From a virus, in UHGV virus genome UHGV-0236300: a stretch of 64,000 nucleotides of DNA; one strand, given 5' to 3'. Shown here piece by piece: positions 3,434 to 40,072 of this stretch. The translations under genes were made by a program, and so were the position numbers. The notes under the pieces were generated by a model that ran no database searches, was not told the origin of the DNA, and saw only the letters and a list, made by a program, of their open reading frames with translations. The first letter of the stretch is position 1, and the number at the start of each line of letters is the position of its first letter.

Positions 3434-3771
3434 GTTTGTGGAGAAATATCGTTAACTACGTGTGTGGCAATCCGACTCCTGAAGAGAAGGATGTTGTGAT
3501 TCACGATTTTACTAAAAGATCTCGTGAAAAAGATCTACTGCTAACAAAGGTGACTGATAAAGATCCTGCAGTAGGGGACTGGGCAGGTTTTGCGTTTACA
3601 TCGGACAAATACACCTTTAACAAAGGTGACTACCTTGTTGTGGATTTTAACGAAGATATTGAGGGTGCTGAACCTTACTATCAAACCCTTATTGTTGCAG
3701 GGTGTGTTGATCTCTCTGCAGGCATGCACAGTTTGATTCTTTTTGAGCTTGACTCTGAAGACCTTGAGTAG
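3430..3771 (+). CDS. hypothetical protein
   Basis: ORF overlapping the helicase stop by 4 nt (coupled); no motif. Confidence 0.5.
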   Translation: MSLWRNIVNYVCGNPTPEEKDVVIHDFTKRSREKDLLLTKVTDKDPAVGDWAGFAFTSDKYTFNKGDYLVVDFNEDIEGAEPYYQTLIVAGCVDLSAGMHSLILFELDSEDLE

Positions 3772-26601: not shown

Positions 26602-27021
26602 ATGAACATTAAATCTGATAATCCGGCATATAGCTTTGATAACGCTTTTTGTCACGGTCCGGCGGCGAAAGGATTCGAAATCGATGGTAAACTAATTATT
26701 GTCAATGTTGACGGGGAAGAGGTTGCAGTATATCCGGTGGCAGACGTTAAAAGCCGTCTACAATGCCGCATAGATGTTACCGCCTATCAGCTTGATCCGG
26801 TCCGGGTAGTTGCCCTGGTCCTGGAAGAAGAAATTAAAGCAATGCACCACAGCAACAAGTTTATTGGTGACGCTCAAGATAATATGCAGGTATGCCGCTA
26901 TAAAGTTAATGAAGTGCTTAAAGAGTACGGCTATAAGGATTTAATGATCAAGCGCGATGAAAAATTCCGCTACCGTAACGACCTGGCAAATCGGATTTTT
27001 GAAATATACGAATCATTATAA
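26602..27021 (+). CDS. hypothetical protein
   Basis: ORF with SD AAGAGGTAAAAA upstream; followed by a terminator. Confidence 0.6.
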   Translation: MNIKSDNPAYSFDNAFCHGPAAKGFEIDGKLIIVNVDGEEVAVYPVADVKSRLQCRIDVTAYQLDPVRVVALVLEEEIKAMHHSNKFIGDAQDNMQVCRYKVNEVLKEYGYKDLMIKRDEKFRYRNDLANRIFEIYESL

Positions 27022-27039
27022 TTTCTTAACTGAATTATC

Positions 27040-27068
27040 AAGGGGCTTAAAGGCCCCTTTCTTTTTGT
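27040..27068 (+). terminator. rho-independent terminator
   Basis: AAGGGGC-TTAAAG-GCCCCTT hairpin followed by TCTTTTTG; closes the plus-strand cassette array. Confidence 0.7.
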
Positions 27069-27526
27069 CTGCTCTTCTCCTACCATAAACGGCCCTACCT
27101 GGCAAGTGGAATAATTGACTAGCCATCAATCCCACATACTGTACAAATATACATGGAAAATAACTATTGCATAATCTTTCATTGTGTGGTAGCAGGGCCA
27201 TTTTTACCCGTTTTCTCTCCCAAAAGTGCACGTAATGCCGCTATTGCACAAATTTTAACCTGATGCACATCTCCAATATCTTGTCAACAACTAAAAATCT
27301 TTATAAGTCATACACTTACACAGCATCGAAAGCGTGTTCTACGCGAAAAATCGAGTATAACTATAGCCGCCAGATCTCAGAATTCACGTACGCACGCCAT
27401 TCTATAGTCTGCAAAGTATTTATTCCAACCACAGAATAACGGAATAGTCAATACCTGCATAAAATAATTATTCGTGTAAACTGCATAACATAAATCAGCT
27501 CAGGTGTCAACATTTTTCGTAAACAG

Positions 27527-28322
27527 TTCGAAATTGTCACGATAAGTTATTATACACAGAGAAATCTTTAGTCGTCTAATGTTTACTGTACATTACTATA
27601 CTGACTGGAATCATTAGATGACTAAGAGAAAGATAAGAAATAATTAATAATGTAATTGTTTTACCTGTAACAATAAGGCAACTATGCAAACGAATGGCAT
27701 GGCGCGACGGAGTCGCGACATAATATAAAAGCAGTAACAATCACCCCCGTGATAGTTTTTCTGCAATCTATTATTCAGATCATAGTTGCCTTGTATTTAG
27801 TTAATCATGACATAACAAGCAAGGCAACTATAGATCTTCTAATAGTTGCCCTGCTTTTATATTATGTCATAGATTGTTATCTTGTTAATTGTTTTCATGC
27901 AAACGAATGTCATGGCTTATCATCTCTGTGTAAACAATTTGGGCGTAAACTATTCAGATGAAAACTATTCAGGCGTAAACAGTCTATGCGTAAACAGTGA
28001 GATATGGAATAGTAACAGCCGTTATTGTGTCATATTGTGTCATTGTGTCAAAGGTAAAAGTGTCAAAAGTGACAATTTTGTCACATTGTGTCAGACAAGT
28101 TTTTCTCCTCTTTGTCAAGTGCCGCATGAAAAATTTACAAACTGGTATGGTAGCATTTTTGCGGCCCTGTTTACATTCAGGAATGTATGTATAATCCTTG
28201 CTGTGTGGGCGTTTAGACGTCTGGACGGTCAGAAGTCAGCAGGTCAATATCTAATCTATTGGTTGCTAACTATATCCCACACAAATAGTAAGAAATATAA
28301 TTGTTATGTGCGTAAACAGTAA
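27527..28322. repeat. iteron-like repeats (core GCGTAAACAGT) in a noncoding region
   Basis: (T/G)CGTAAACAGT at ~27527, ~27974, ~27988, ~28310; GCGTAAACT at ~27944; AAGGCAACTAT and its reverse complement recur at ~27673, ~27783, ~27821, ~27843. Confidence 0.55.
28025..28120. repeat. array of TTGTGTCA-type short repeats
   Basis: TTGTGTCAT x2, TTGTGTCAA, GTGTCAAAAGTGACA, TTGTCACA, TTGTGTCAG, TTGTCAAG within ~95 bp. Confidence 0.55.
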
Positions 28323-28622
28323 CTCATGTTATCAATCCCTGTATGTATCGCCAGTGGTGCGCATAATGGGTATTATGTTAAATTGCCCGTAATGATAACC
28401 ATTCTCACAATGATAGGTATTCTCATTCATCCCCACAAGATAGATTGCAAATGTTGTGCCACTGTGTGAACGGCCTCACCTATTAATTTGCCTCACTGCC
28501 TCGATATTTGAGAATTATTATAAAAAATGAGAAGTATTCCCATTCCGTCCGCCTGGCAGCACTCCTGTAGGACAAGCACAACATCGGGGTATAACTGGAC
28601 CTGTTCAGATATTTCTGGCTGA

Positions 28623-29162
28623 CTCTTCAGGCCTGTGTGGGAAAAGCCAACCTCTCCGGCGGCGGGGAGGGGGGTCAATTAAAAAATTTACGTGGTGTAT
28701 GAAGCGCTCTTCAGGCAAGGTGTGTATTATGGGATGAAACCCTCTTCAGGTGATGATATTTGTGGGGGGATATTTGCTGGAAAGCCAGATATGACGGGGC
28801 TCCCGGCGGGGATGGGGTAGTACAGACAGGGAAAATGTGGGGATGTGGTGGGAGTAAATTGATCAAGTAGGTAGGATATGGAATATGTTACAAGTATGTT
28901 AAATATAGAGGTAGGATATTTGTGAGATTTGTGTGTAAAATCAAAGACTTAGGTGGTGTTGTGGTATTTTCTATAAATAATTCAAGTTTAATAGGTGATA
29001 TTTGTCTCCATCCACTTTGTGTGGTAAACAGCTCCTAATTGAATTGGTTTACAAGTGTATATAAAGTATACAAATTAAAGATATAAGAAACCCCCCTCCC
29101 CCTTCGGCTACCATTCACCTTTTCCTCTGACTGGTACTTAAACACTTATTCAGACTCTTCAG
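28623..29162. repeat. dispersed 9-mer CTCTTCAGG (4 copies here, 5th at ~29814)
   Basis: Exact 9-mer at ~28623, ~28707, ~28742, ~29154 and ~29814; about 0.5 copies expected by chance in 64 kb. Confidence 0.55.
28664..29101. repeat. 12-bp G-rich inverted repeat pair (GGGGAGGGGGGT / ACCCCCCTCCCC) flanking a GT-skewed segment
   Basis: Perfect reverse complements at ~28664-28675 and ~29090-29101; the intervening plus strand is almost devoid of C and holds G-runs. Confidence 0.5.
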
Positions 29163-29526
29163 GTTATCACCCCTATACTATATGGCAGTGACTGGTGTCC
29201 TCCGGCCCCTCTTTCGCCACCCGTCCGCTTCGCCATGCTAATGCCATAGCCAAAGGTTCGGTTGTTCACCCTGTTCACTCAGGTGTATCTCCATACCCCT
29301 TCAAACCGAAGAGAACAGAAAACCCGAATTACTCGGTAAAAGAAAAGAGAAGAACTTAATTTTATCAAGATAGGCAAGAATGTCAAGGGATGACTGCTCA
29401 CTAAACAAGCAAACAGTCATGTGTGGTAGGTAAGTAACTGGGTTGGTAGGAAATTTAGTTGGAAGATGTTATAGGTGCCTCCAGAACCTTAGCTGGGCAG
29501 CTAAACCTGCAAAGCAGACTTGTGTG

Positions 29527-29808
29527 TCAGTCCAAAGGTTCATCTACTACTTCACTGAAATCAATGTTCAGGGTCTCTTCCCAACCATCAATCTCAGCAC
29601 CAGAGTAGAGATCTTTAGGGTCTACATCAAGGGCTTCCGCAACAGCATCTATATTTAACACTTCTGGCAGGTAAGATTCATCGAATTCAAGGTAAATCAG
29701 GCCACGAGTGTTGTCAGTCCCACCAAATATTTCTATTTTCATGAAATCTCCTCTGGAAATGAGAGTGTGAACAGGGTTTATACGTTCCAATACGCTGGAA
29801 TTATGCAC
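29527..29808 (-). CDS. hypothetical acidic protein
   Basis: ORF with GTG start; very acidic composition. Confidence 0.5.
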   Translation of the reverse strand: MHNSSVLERINPVHTLISRGDFMKIEIFGGTDNTRGLIYLEFDESYLPEVLNIDAVAEALDVDPKDLYSGAEIDGWEETLNIDFSEVVDEPLD

Positions 29809-29862
29809 GTTTGCCTCTTCAGGCCATGCTTTAGCATGATAAACTTATGTGGGCTCGGTGCT

Positions 29863-30048
29863 TCATAGTCTCCCACCTCTGAACTCTTCGTGCTCGGGCA
29901 TAATAGAGAACCAGATGGCTATGATATCTTCCCACGTTAGGTCATCAGCCTCAGGATCCACCTGGGACGGAGATAGAGAATCCTCAGAATTGAAGTTTTC
30001 CTCTATCACTCCTTCAGATGTCTCTGTAGATGCATGTGTGTTGGTCAT
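29863..30048 (-). CDS. hypothetical acidic protein
   Basis: Short acidic ORF. Confidence 0.4.
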   Translation of the reverse strand: MTNTHASTETSEGVIEENFNSEDSLSPSQVDPEADDLTWEDIIAIWFSIMPEHEEFRGGRL

Positions 30049-31165: not shown

Positions 31166-31471
31166 TTATTCTGCAGAGCGTTTGAACAGAATGTCTGCTT
31201 CAGACATGTGCTCAACCTCTTCTTCGATTTTAGCTCGACGTTTTTCAGCTTCGTAGCGGATATCGAATTCGGTAGCCACCAATGACTTGATAAACTTAGG
31301 AGAATACAGGTGATCCTGTTTCTCGACAAGAATAATATCCTTGATAGCGTCTTTCAGATCTTTAATCTGAAGCTGAAGTTCCACCAGCTCTTCAATTGTT
31401 TTACGGAGGCGATCACGCTCTGCAGTGTCAGAAGGCAGAGAGGTGAACAGTTCAACTTTAGATTTAGCCAT
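31166..31471 (-). CDS. hypothetical protein (predicted helical)
   Basis: ORF; Lys/Glu-rich repeats suggest coiled-coil. Confidence 0.55.
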   Translation of the reverse strand: MAKSKVELFTSLPSDTAERDRLRKTIEELVELQLQIKDLKDAIKDIILVEKQDHLYSPKFIKSLVATEFDIRYEAEKRRAKIEEEVEHMSEADILFKRSAE

Positions 31472-39526: not shown

Positions 39527-40072
39527 TTAAATTGTGCACTTCAGGTGGTTGTCGATGGTGTCAAGAAAATTATCCCGTTCTTTCTCAGAGTTTTCACGGA
39601 TGTAGCTGAAAAACATATCTAGAATAACCTTATTGATATATTCCAACTCCTCTGTGTTCAAGTACTTAGCAGGATCTACAATGACATCCCAAGTATCATA
39701 CAGACCGCACTCATGATACCCCCAACGCCGCTCAATTGTCAAACTGATCGGCAAATCTTTACCGTCACAAACAACCCTCCATCTACAGATACTGGTATCT
39801 GGGCGTACCTGTGCACGGTATACCTGTACAAAATCCAATTTGAATTTGAGGTACTCGTCATACAATTTAAGCACAAAGCTCTCGATTTGTGGAGACACTT
39901 TTGCAGCAAACTGTGCGTATTTGTACTTGCACTGGATGATCTTTCTGCGTTTTGCAGTTAAATTTTTTGCAGCCAGTTGTTCTTCAGTGTACCTCCACCT
40001 ACGATCAACAAACGCAACAGGGTCTTTGTCCCCATAGAGGTCTTCCCAGTTAATCAGAAGCATACCTGTCAC
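39527..40072 (-). CDS. hypothetical protein
   Basis: ORF; no motif. Confidence 0.55.
   Translation of the reverse strand: MTGMLLINWEDLYGDKDPVAFVDRRWRYTEEQLAAKNLTAKRRKIIQCKYKYAQFAAKVSPQIESFVLKLYDEYLKFKLDFVQVYRAQVRPDTSICRWRVVCDGKDLPISLTIERRWGYHECGLYDTWDVIVDPAKYLNTEELEYINKVILDMFFSYIRENSEKERDNFLDTIDNHLKCTI

Follow-up and report, generated by a model that had tools for sequence, protein, structure and literature searches.

The nonanucleotide CTCTTCAGG is repeated in a single orientation beside the physical genome end of an rV5-like Vequintavirus, the E. coli phage that is the source of the DNA analyzed here (a stretch of 64,000 nucleotides from the virus genome UHGV-0236300, hereafter the window). 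Its non-coding copies are under purifying selection, and both their location and their polarity recur in other genera of the Vequintavirinae. Our favored reading, which we hold tentatively and regard as short of probable, is that these repeats might be polar protein-recognition sites of the packaging or end-processing region of rV5-like phages. The packaging signals and genome ends of these phages have never been dissected.

The motif cluster adjoins the direct terminal repeat

An earlier sequence-only reading of the window had reported five exact copies of CTCTTCAGG within 1.2 kb, which we confirm, and did so without the context of a direct terminal repeat (DTR); the motif in fact flanks this repeat, i.e., the physical end of the genome. 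A 2.5-kb gap without genes (27060-29526) holds the concatemer junction. In the founding rV5 paper, the genome was taken as circularly permuted and this 2.5-kb stretch was tagged “non-coding” (PMC3606486). Mapping GenBank records onto the window places a 460-bp DTR within the gap: five independent records have a genome end at window position 28094 or 28553, the Gotham record carries an annotated 459-bp repeat_region at both its ends, the YN3 record has a 458-bp, 100% identical repeat at both ends, and the bov10K2 record starts at the same base. Read on the + strand, the virion DNA starts at 28094 and ends at 28553. The features of this region are as follows.

28024..28093, + strand: array of short repeats (ATTGTGTCA / GTGTCA) abutting the far DTR boundary; copy number differs among relatives
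28094..28553, no strand: 460-bp DTR, concatemer junction
28547..28562, - strand: arm-side DTR boundary and putative terminase cut site, conserved; minus strand GTGCTGCCA|GGCGGAC
28623..28631, + strand: copy 1, CTCTTCAGG, in arm sense CCTGAAGAG; 70 bp beyond the edge of the DTR, unchanged in all aligned genomes (15/15)
28707..28715, + strand: copy 2, kept in 14/15 genomes
28742..28750, + strand: copy 3, kept in 14/15 genomes
29155..29163, + strand: copy 4, inside an ultraconserved non-coding block, kept in 15/15 genomes
29815..29823, + strand: copy 5, in a 120-bp promoter-like spacer between two minus-strand small genes, upstream of the last one
29090..29440, no strand: ultraconserved non-coding block with copy 4, 350 bp, 99-100% identity in 15 genomes
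29359..29386, - strand: sigma-70-like promoter, TTGACA-16-TAAAAT, TG-extended, reading toward the DTR; kept in relatives

The arm-side boundary, GTGCTgcca|GGCGGAC, is homologous to GTGCTA|GACGGAC of phage KPP-1 and to sequences from Seunavirus and Avunavirus. The KPP-1 terminus was set by PhageTerm (PMC9862379), and the KPP-1 and Vequintavirus termini, determined independently, align to the same nucleotide. All five non-coding motif copies (28623-29823) lie on the + strand, at successive spacings of 84, 35, 413, and 660 bp; copies 1 to 3 are 70-190 bp outside the DTR, and copies 4 and 5 are 0.6 and 1.3 kb from it. The opposite strand has no CTGAAG between 27000 and 29900, and neither the DTR nor its left flank (27060-28093) contains a copy of the motif, the left flank being occupied by different repeats, ATTGTGTCA and CGTAAACAGT.

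Selection on the non-coding copies and drift of the intragenic ones

Across 14 relatives, 68 of 70 instances of the non-coding copies are retained, and only 7% of motif columns are variable versus 37% in neighboring non-coding sequence (Fisher p = 0.001). The distances between the copies behave differently from one pair to the next: copies 2 and 3 are a fixed 35 bp apart in every relative retaining both, copies 1 and 2 are separated by 82-150 bp as a result of indels, and the indel-rich spacer at 28560-28600 likewise changes how far copy 1 lies from the cut site.

The five clustered copies are not the entire set. The window has ten against 0.49 expected from dinucleotide shuffles, and 0 of 100 shuffles reached this number. 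The other five, at 3478 (minus strand), 43657, 46092, 52724, and 53591, all lie within genes, where the sense strand gives the codons CCT GAA GAG (Pro-Glu-Glu) in frame. We consider these not to be sites, judging from their in-frame Pro-Glu-Glu codons with synonymous drift: in the same relatives, they are changed in 4 of 8 instances, against 10 of 10 kept for the non-coding copies. The presence of 9 of the 10 window copies on the + strand needs to be read with the qualification that the strand of the intragenic ones follows gene sense. Variants with one mismatch are also in excess (42 versus 14 expected), and since they track gene sense in both arms, we read this excess as codon composition rather than as additional sites.

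An equal frequency of the motif throughout the genome, which had been named as speaking against its significance, is not what we find. ECP32, a complete relative of 133 kb, has nine copies, four of them in the junction cluster and none in the 69 kb outside the window; no intergenic region of this genome outside the junction cluster has a copy.

Recurrence in other genera of the Vequintavirinae

Four other Vequintavirinae genera possess, in the same arm, clusters of CTGAAGnG with the same polarity upstream of the homologous cut site (GTGCTA|GACGGAC). In KPP-1, three copies are found in the same arm and polarity upstream of the cut site, and the 15-nt context of copy 1, CCTGAAGAGTCAGCC, matches CCTGAAGTGTCAGCC of this phage. 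No homology links the small genes that flank the region in KPP-1 to those in the window; the orientation was therefore taken from the conserved nucleotide-metabolism arm. EspYZU15 has four copies within 150 bp, of seven in 40.9 kb, and Avunavirus has three at 8-60 bp from the putative cut. Four IMG/VR contigs have 1-5 sense and no antisense copies within 700 bp upstream of the cut. A homologous terminator-promoter module bearing the motif is shared by Mydovirus and Seunavirus, and part of this sharing may reflect common descent rather than selection. Scanning IMG/VR for pairs of the motif separated by 15-45 nt was uninformative, yielding more than 120 unrelated hits that were mostly coding repeats, and our literature search found the motif mentioned in no paper.

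Other properties of the gene-free region

The substitutions in the ultraconserved block around copy 4 are few and show no third-position bias when codon positions are counted on the alignment. RNA folding of 29080-29352 is unexceptional on both strands (z -1.5 and -0.5). A tRNA scan recovered none. In the Rfam search, no family reached its gathering score within the window, and nothing relevant emerged at E values up to 5 in 26900-29900. The junction region, searched against E. coli genomes for satellites that mimic the packaging site, had no matches. Among the neighboring small genes, the sole protein-family match is that of 31166-31471 to phrog_639, “transcriptional regulator,” and there are no Pfam hits. 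The large terminase (TerL) of the phage is a generic Terminase_6N/6C protein with no solved relative by sequence.

The setting of copy 5 requires a correction. It had been placed next to the start codon of a gene at 29527-29808; the relatives annotate a shorter gene of 216 nt that begins at ATG 29742 and has a GAGGAG ribosome-binding site, and 1-nt indels among relatives mark 29743-29808 as non-coding. With this start codon, copy 5 lies 73 nt upstream. The description of several copies as sitting in hairpins holds for copy 5, which folds stably (-11.3 kcal/mol, z -2.4), and not for the others, copies 1 and 2 being marginal and copies 3 and 4 unfolded. The hairpin registers differ from copy to copy, and no one stem-loop recurs stably in a shared register across the copies; with copy 5 alone being stable, this speaks against a conserved hairpin or intrinsic terminator.

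A candidate recognition element of the genome end

That the motif might be a sequence-specific recognition site was already suggested from the sequence, and this general idea is supported by the low variability of the motif columns, the single polarity, and the recurrence in other genera; the specific forms then proposed fare worse. Along a replicating concatemer, the nucleotide-metabolism arm leads into the gene-free region, in which three to five copies of CTCTTCAGG (CCTGAAGAG in the direction of the arm), all oriented alike, come before the conserved cut site GTGCTnnnA|GGCGGAC, one boundary of the 460-bp DTR. As a mechanism, we propose that the copies might bind a phage packaging or end-processing protein, for instance the small terminase or a recognition factor of the pacB type, and that the bound protein might label the junction and give the terminase its orientation, a role also proposed for the pacB region and for the one-stranded CCTAAAG arrays flanking the terminal repeat of T7. 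The variable distances separating copy 1 from copy 2 and from the cut argue against a lambda cosB-type measuring device. Also counting against the mechanism are the remoteness of copies 4 and 5 (0.6 and 1.3 kb away from the DTR); the layout of the array, which is one-sided relative to the DTR and aperiodic, unlike T7; and the occurrence of some copies within ordinary expression signals, namely, promoter-like surroundings for copies 3 and 5 here and for two copies in KPP-1, along with a terminator loop in KPP-1.

Phages of the rV5-like type (Vequintavirinae) are isolated widely and find use in cocktails for therapy and food safety. The gap in their genomes is now seen to hold the concatemer junction, an exact cut site aligned across genera, and conserved polar motifs, thereby offering cis-elements to mutate in studies of packaging, replication, and DNA entry. 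Knowledge of the junction also aids the correct orientation and annotation of genomes and might be used in engineering, for instance to package plasmids or cosmid-like vectors.

Alternative explanations

The motif could be a transcription box, i.e., an operator or activator site near positions -31 to -23 in promoters of the sigma-70 type directed toward the DTR, akin to a T4 MotA box or to a repressor site over the -35 element, and would then control transcription into the terminal repeat as with T7 phiOR. We regard this as possible but unlikely. On the minus strand, CATAAT follows copy 3 after 10 nt (28726-28731), and in copy 5 GGCCTGAAGAGGC is followed by 9 nt and then CATAAT (29800-29805), which is TATAAT in four relatives; both hexamers follow the motif's CC by 16-17 nt, and with a hexamer base rate of 1.6-2.8%, the probability of two in five is about 0.0075. 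Further, two KPP-1 copies read TTGACCTGAAG(A/T)G-N10-TATACT/TATTCT, a real small gene lies downstream of copy 5, and the majority of the promoter-like matches in the gap are on the strand of these putative promoters. However, copies 1, 2, and 4 lack a -10 hexamer, as do all 13 non-coding copies examined from Seunavirus, Avunavirus, and Certrevirus, and the motif shows stronger conservation than does the putative -10 element at copy 3, in which three of six columns vary. None of the 33 published rV5 promoters contains the motif, and our literature search found no Vequintavirus transcriptome spanning the region. The idea of a middle or late promoter class is likewise not supported, given that the other intergenic regions of the 133-kb genome have no copy and that a -10 at the right distance is found in two of five copies here and 2 of 15 in other genera.

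A second, rather improbable, alternative is that the element acts in RNA: transcripts reading through from the arm would carry CCUGAAGAG, some copies of which would form a small hairpin with a conserved UGAAGA loop bound by a phage or host RNA-binding protein or an RNase, in a boxB- or CsrB-like manner. All copies are in arm sense in every genus, and a UGAAGN loop is presented on differing stems, namely, GGGAGCC/GGCUCC in KPP-1, GGGGCC/GGCCC in PBES 02, CUCC/GGAG in Mydovirus and Seunavirus, and GCC/GGC in copy 5. The sequence also resembles boxB of lambda nutL, GCCCUGAAGAAGGGC. Against this, copies 1, 2, and 4 are unable to form the hairpin, their fold energies are no better than those of shuffles, no Rfam family matches, and transcripts from promoters that overlap some of the copies would exclude those copies.

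It is very unlikely, in our estimate, that the copies are strand-specific nick sites in virion DNA like those of T5, the phiKMV-like phages, and tf, where a consensus of about 9 nt lies on one strand. The strand distribution (all non-coding copies and nine of ten overall on one strand) would fit, and DTR phages with convergent transcription supply precedents, namely, tf (TACT/RTGMC) and the consensus sequences of phiKMV and T5 (PMC3517423). However, the known nick sites are spread over the genome, unlike the conserved copies here, all of which fall in 1.2 kb at one end, and the intragenic ones are not conserved; no nicks are reported for rV5-like phages in the literature found.

We accord a similarly low likelihood to replication-origin boxes, in which 9-mers of DnaA-box size would lie on either side of a G-rich/AT-rich region of unwinding or R-loop formation at 28650-29090. 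GC skew rises to as much as +0.5 at 28650-28950 and is followed by a stretch of 36% GC, which is bracketed by a perfect 12-nt inverted repeat (GGGGAGGGGGGT/ACCCCCCTCCCC); copies 1 to 3 are on one side of this stretch and copy 4 is on the other. There is also one match to the IHF consensus, at 28939, but the window-wide count of such matches is not above chance. No initiator protein is known, the shift in skew is explicable by the change in transcription direction (the conclusion of the rV5 paper), and the arrangement of boxes with an AT-rich tract did not turn up in the other genera.

Least plausible is the absence of function, with the copies being relics of duplicated promoter or terminator cassettes held by descent: copies 2 and 3 are part of a 35-bp tandem duplication (17 nt, 88% identity) and the Mydovirus/Seunavirus module bears the motif, but the 9-mer is far better conserved than its flanks, the flanks of the five copies have nothing in common beyond it, and the polarity is retained in genera with otherwise unalignable terminal regions.

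Parallels with known systems

As in the T4 MotA box, a 9-bp element is found at or over the -35 position at a fixed distance from the -10 in copies 3 and 5 and in two KPP-1 copies; the MotA box, however, precedes many genes, whereas no other intergenic region contains our motif, most copies of which lack a -10. The nick sites of T5, phiKMV-like phages, and tf are similar in comprising a motif of about 9 nt on one strand in DTR phages with convergent transcription and differ in being scattered genome-wide rather than clustered in 1.2 kb at one terminus (PMC3517423). In a by-eye check against consensus sequences, the sigma-32, sigma-E, and sigma-54 promoters, lambda boxA/boxB, the DnaA box, Chi, and KOPS were set aside for wrong spacing or register. 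The R sites of lambda cosB and the pac repeats of SPP1 and P1, arrays recognized by the small terminase, share with our cluster the presence of several short sites within about 200 bp of the cut on the packaged side, but here the spacing between site and cut is not fixed among relatives, and the ends are DTRs rather than cohesive or headful ends.

The SRL/SRR repeats of T7 offer a further comparison, being also a short unit in many copies, strictly on one strand, and adjoining a short direct terminal repeat. Checking the T7 sequence, with its 160-bp terminal repeat, we found CCTAAAG at nt 17-60, 175-355, and 39634-39700 and none on the other strand; this unit equals CCTGAAG of our motif at six of seven positions. 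At the right genome end, both the T7 array and ours read toward the repeat, and in both cases a promoter reads into the junction (phiOR in T7). The T7 arrays differ in their 13-bp period, as opposed to the irregular spacing here, and in extending to both flanks of the repeat as well as its interior, as opposed to one side only with none in the DTR. The phages are also unrelated, ours being a myovirus that depends on host RNA polymerase and has a generic TerL. To our knowledge, the function of the T7 array has not been settled, and none has been assigned so far to the SRL/SRR repeats. One speculative and decidedly doubtful extension is that one-stranded CCT(A/G)AAG arrays by short DTRs might be a shared signal of T7-type exact-DTR end formation in unrelated families (Autographiviridae and Vequintavirinae). 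A shared host factor, or packaging proteins that evolved convergently, would recognize this signal and thereby impart polarity to the concatemer junction. If true, this would give the SRL/SRR repeats a function. The likeness to the T7 arrays to within one base may also offer a second system in which the role of such arrays can be tested.

Position of the motif relative to the genome ends

More than 120 rV5-like Vequintavirus phages (e.g., ECP32, Murica, FV3, and rV5 variants) match the region with 90-97% identity. As plus-strand genes extend to 27021 and minus-strand genes occupy the DNA from 29527, positions 27060-29526 constitute a 2.5-kb convergent, gene-free gap, in which we found neither tRNAs nor Rfam matches. 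In the rV5 genome paper this stretch appears as a "non-coding" box, and the genome was taken to be circularly permuted (PMC3606486). Relatives are represented in GenBank by many records that start or stop inside the gap region: Gotham has a 459-bp repeat_region annotated at both record ends, YN3 has 458 bp, 100% identical, at both ends, and bov10K2 opens at the same nucleotide. The other boundary is where ECP2303 ends and Pr121LW starts, by coordinate arithmetic on similarity-search hits. The direct terminal repeat (DTR) mapped in this way is a well-conserved block, with indel-rich variable DNA on both sides. The window spans the concatemer junction, and most GenBank records were opened away from the true ends. 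In the Klebsiella phage KPP-1, from another genus of the subfamily, a 514-bp DTR with T7-type packaging has been established from doubled coverage and PhageTerm (PMC9862379).

Principal features of the window
28094-28553: DTR, 460 bp, mapped from relatives' records
28623, 28707, 28742, plus strand: motif copies 1-3, 70-190 bp outside the right DTR boundary
29155, plus strand: copy 4, at 600 bp
29815, plus strand: copy 5, at 1.26 kb
29527-29742, minus strand: gene for a 71-aa protein of unknown function (phrog_12108)
3478 (minus strand) and 43657, 46092, 52724, 53591 (plus strand): motif copies inside genes

The cluster of five copies of CTCTTCAGG noticed in the sequence-only reading stands, all on the plus strand; the motif is polar and flanks an exact-cut DTR. 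The placement of copy 5 next to a start codon does not: the gene 29527-29808 was a mechanical ORF over-extended to a GTG, while relatives annotate a 216-nt gene from the ATG at 29742, which has a GAGGAG ribosome-binding site. Because relatives differ by one-nucleotide indels in 29743-29808, that segment is non-coding, and copy 5 therefore lies 73 nt upstream of the start codon.

Selection on the non-coding copies

The window contains 10 exact copies of the motif, against 0.49 expected from dinucleotide-preserving shuffles (0 of 100 reached 10 copies); the finding is real and non-random, and our literature search returned no description of the motif. All five intragenic copies read CCT GAA GAG on the sense strand in frame 0 (Pro-Glu-Glu), and exactly these codons are used by 5 of the 11 such tripeptides in window genes, against about 1.3 expected from codon usage. 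Since these copies drift in relatives, their excess is probably due to chance or codon-pair preference. One-mismatch variants are also in excess (42 versus 14 expected), and as their strand tracks gene sense in both arms we read this as a codon-composition effect.

Alignment of the window with 14 relatives shows purifying selection acting on the motif as a 9-mer, separately from its flanks. Within 28554-28830, 2 of 27 motif columns are variable versus 92 of 250 elsewhere (Fisher p = 0.001), and across 28554-29526 the values are 5.6% and 32.7%; exact non-coding copies are retained in 68 of 70 instances in these relatives. In CM1 and APCEc02, synonymous substitutions alter four of eight intragenic copies (e.g., TTCTTCAGG, CTCTTCCGG, and TTCTTCGGG), and the non-coding copies are intact (10/10). 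The complete 133-kb relative ECP32 has nine copies, four of them within the terminal gap and none in the 69 kb beyond window coverage. Of the two sets, the non-coding copies alone behave like functional sites, and the intragenic copies are ordinary codons.

Conservation across the subfamily

The KPP-1 (Mydovirus) sequence runs in the opposite orientation to the window, such that its plus arm (thymidylate synthase, RNR, PhoH, and Clp, followed by small genes) corresponds to the minus arm of the window. Read along this arm (arm-sense), the motif is CCTGAAGAG.

Motif copies in other genera
Mydovirus (KPP-1, sequence L025), arm-sense: 1190, 1242, and, as the variant CCTGAAGTG, 2200; DTR from 2517
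Seunavirus (EspYZU15), arm-sense: four CCTGAAGnG within 150 bp where the terminal gap begins, and one further CTGAAGTG
Avunavirus (19-1-2), arm-sense: CCTGAAGGG, CTGAAGTA, and CTGAAGGG, located 8-60 bp ahead of the putative cut
Certrevirus (PBES 02), arm-sense: a single hairpin copy in non-coding DNA, GGGGCC-TGAAGA-GGCCC, right after the last gene

Beyond the terminal-gap copies, EspYZU15 has only two sense copies and one antisense copy in 40.9 kb; in PBES 02 another copy overlaps the stop codon of the last gene and the remaining ones are coding. The arm-side DTR boundary itself proves homologous between the genera on sequence alignment.

Arm-side DTR boundary (cut shown by a slash)
Window: GTGCTgcca / GGCGGACGG
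KPP-1: GTGCTa / GACGGACAG
EspYZU15: GTGCTa / GACGGACAA
Avunavirus: GGCa / GACGATTG

For KPP-1 and Vequintavirus, the genome ends were determined independently and coincide at one nucleotide of this alignment. In all four, a second conserved polar motif, (C/A)AAATATC, occurs 40-55 nt inside the DTR, with two to three repeats per terminal region. IMG/VR was scanned for the 14-mer GTGCTAGACGGACA. Of the contigs matched, four are of Vequintavirinae genome size; over the 700 bp that precede the cut, these have one to five sense and no antisense CTGAAG. The CTGAAGnG core, its polarity, and its position upstream of the cut are therefore conserved across the subfamily, in terminal regions that cannot otherwise be aligned. 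Mydovirus-like genomes also have the core reversed inside the DTR (L025 2604 and 2820; L160, L199, and L201 at +89 and +305 from the cut), so that the cut is faced by copies from either side; this arrangement was not seen in Vequintavirus.

Other features of the terminal gap

A 350-bp non-coding block (29090-29440) is 99-100% identical in 15 genomes, with flanking genes at only 85-90%; its few substitutions are not biased toward third positions, nor is its RNA fold out of the ordinary. Two elements lie inside it:
29386->29359, minus strand: strong sigma-70-like promoter, TTGACA-16-TAAAAT
29336-29324: small hairpin with a T-run

Repeats of ATTGTGTCA/GTGTCA form an array (28024-28093) that ends exactly at the far DTR boundary and differs in copy number among relatives (B9-1 has TGGTGTCTGGTGTC). 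T7-type primases recognize GTGTC and TGGTC. In rV5 the primase-helicase belongs to the gp4 type (PMC3606486). Directly outside the DTR boundary begins TGGCAGCACTCCTGTAG (28554-28570), and several relatives (L006, L011, L015, and Gotham) have a closely similar unit, (G)GCAGCRCTCCTGTA, as a second occurrence. Other repeats include CGTAAACAGT, with four copies in the terminal gap (27518, 27974, 27989, and 28311; also 27943 and 29024) and none elsewhere in the window; GTAAACAG/GTAAACAT, present in the KPP-1 and EspYZU15 terminal regions too; and GATATTTG (arm-sense CAAATATC), grouped with the (C/A)AAATATC motif, with five copies (28503, 28755, 28769, 28915, and 28997) and KPP-1 occurrences at L025 2414, 2431, and 2559. 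A perfect 12-nt inverted repeat, GGGGAGGGGGGT/ACCCCCCTCCCC, is at 28664-28675 and 29090-29101, 414 nt apart, and in both KPP-1 and EspYZU15 the DNA from the motif cluster to the DTR contains C-rich boxes of this kind.

Plus-strand GC skew is -0.25 at 27000-27450 and about +0.5 at 28650-29100 (+0.4 to +0.5, followed by a 36% GC stretch). Both convergent arms read in, and their transcripts into these zones would be C-rich and G-poor; the zones look like Rho-utilization regions insulating the terminal repeat. Bidirectional terminators were expected between the two arms of rV5 and not located (PMC3606486).

Possible functions of the motif

We tentatively propose that a phage protein may bind the motif copies, thereby designating the concatemer junction as the site of end processing or packaging. 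A candidate DNA-binding protein is encoded 1.3 kb from copy 5 (31166-31471, minus strand; 101 aa); it has a match to phrog_639 ("transcriptional regulator", E = 1e-21) and none in Pfam.

The suggestion of a general promoter class is not supported, as copies 1, 2, and 4 lack a -10 hexamer. A narrower role as a transcription-control box for promoters reading into the repeat appears unlikely. It would account for CATAAT 16-17 nt past the CC of copies 3 and 5 (base rate 1.6-2.8%; P ~0.0075 for two of five) and the perfect TTGAC preceding two KPP-1 copies; however, the hexamer is missing from all 13 copies examined in Seunavirus, Avunavirus, and Certrevirus, the putative -10 of copy 3 is less conserved than the motif, published rV5 promoters lack the motif, and it is absent from all other intergenic regions in the ECP32 whole-genome count. 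That the motif acts as an RNA hairpin or loop is still less probable: of the hairpins noted earlier, that of copy 5 alone is notable (-11.3 kcal/mol, z -2.4), the others being weak and in differing registers, and Rfam matching and folding support neither a known RNA family nor an exceptional fold. Strand-specific nick sites like those of T5, phiKMV, and tf (PMC3517423) and origin boxes are both quite improbable, and a relic of duplicated cassettes is the most doubtful of all.

Recognition by a packaging or end-processing protein has analogs in T3/T7 pacB, which lies in unique right-end DNA adjoining the repeat, and in lambda cosB. The distance from motif to cut shifts by indels among relatives and copies 4 and 5 are far away, which disfavors a rigid cosB-like device.

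Comparison with the T7 terminal arrays

The "non-coding box" of a much-used phage group thus becomes a set of testable cis-elements, of a kind already known, namely polar short repeats beside phage terminal repeats or packaging sites; no new category is called for. The closest known system is the terminal-repeat arrays of T7, for which the Vequintavirinae copies offer a second system of study. In T7 end sequences, CCTAAAG occurs in three copies inside the 160-bp terminal repeat, in 8-11 copies with a 13-bp period adjoining the left repeat (nt 175-355), and in two to three copies just before the right repeat, with none on the other strand. These are reportedly the SRL/SRR arrays of Dunn and Studier, in agreement with our sequence check. 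The T7 promoter phiOR points toward the right repeat. CCTGAAG, the Vequintavirinae unit, agrees with CCTAAAG at all but one position and shares its polarity with respect to the repeat at the right genome end; by our rough, uncomputed estimate allowing for registers, such a match would arise by chance with a probability of ~0.01, and we take the resemblance as a lead and not as evidence of homology. In contrast to T7, the window's copies are irregularly spaced and restricted to one side of the DTR, with none inside it.
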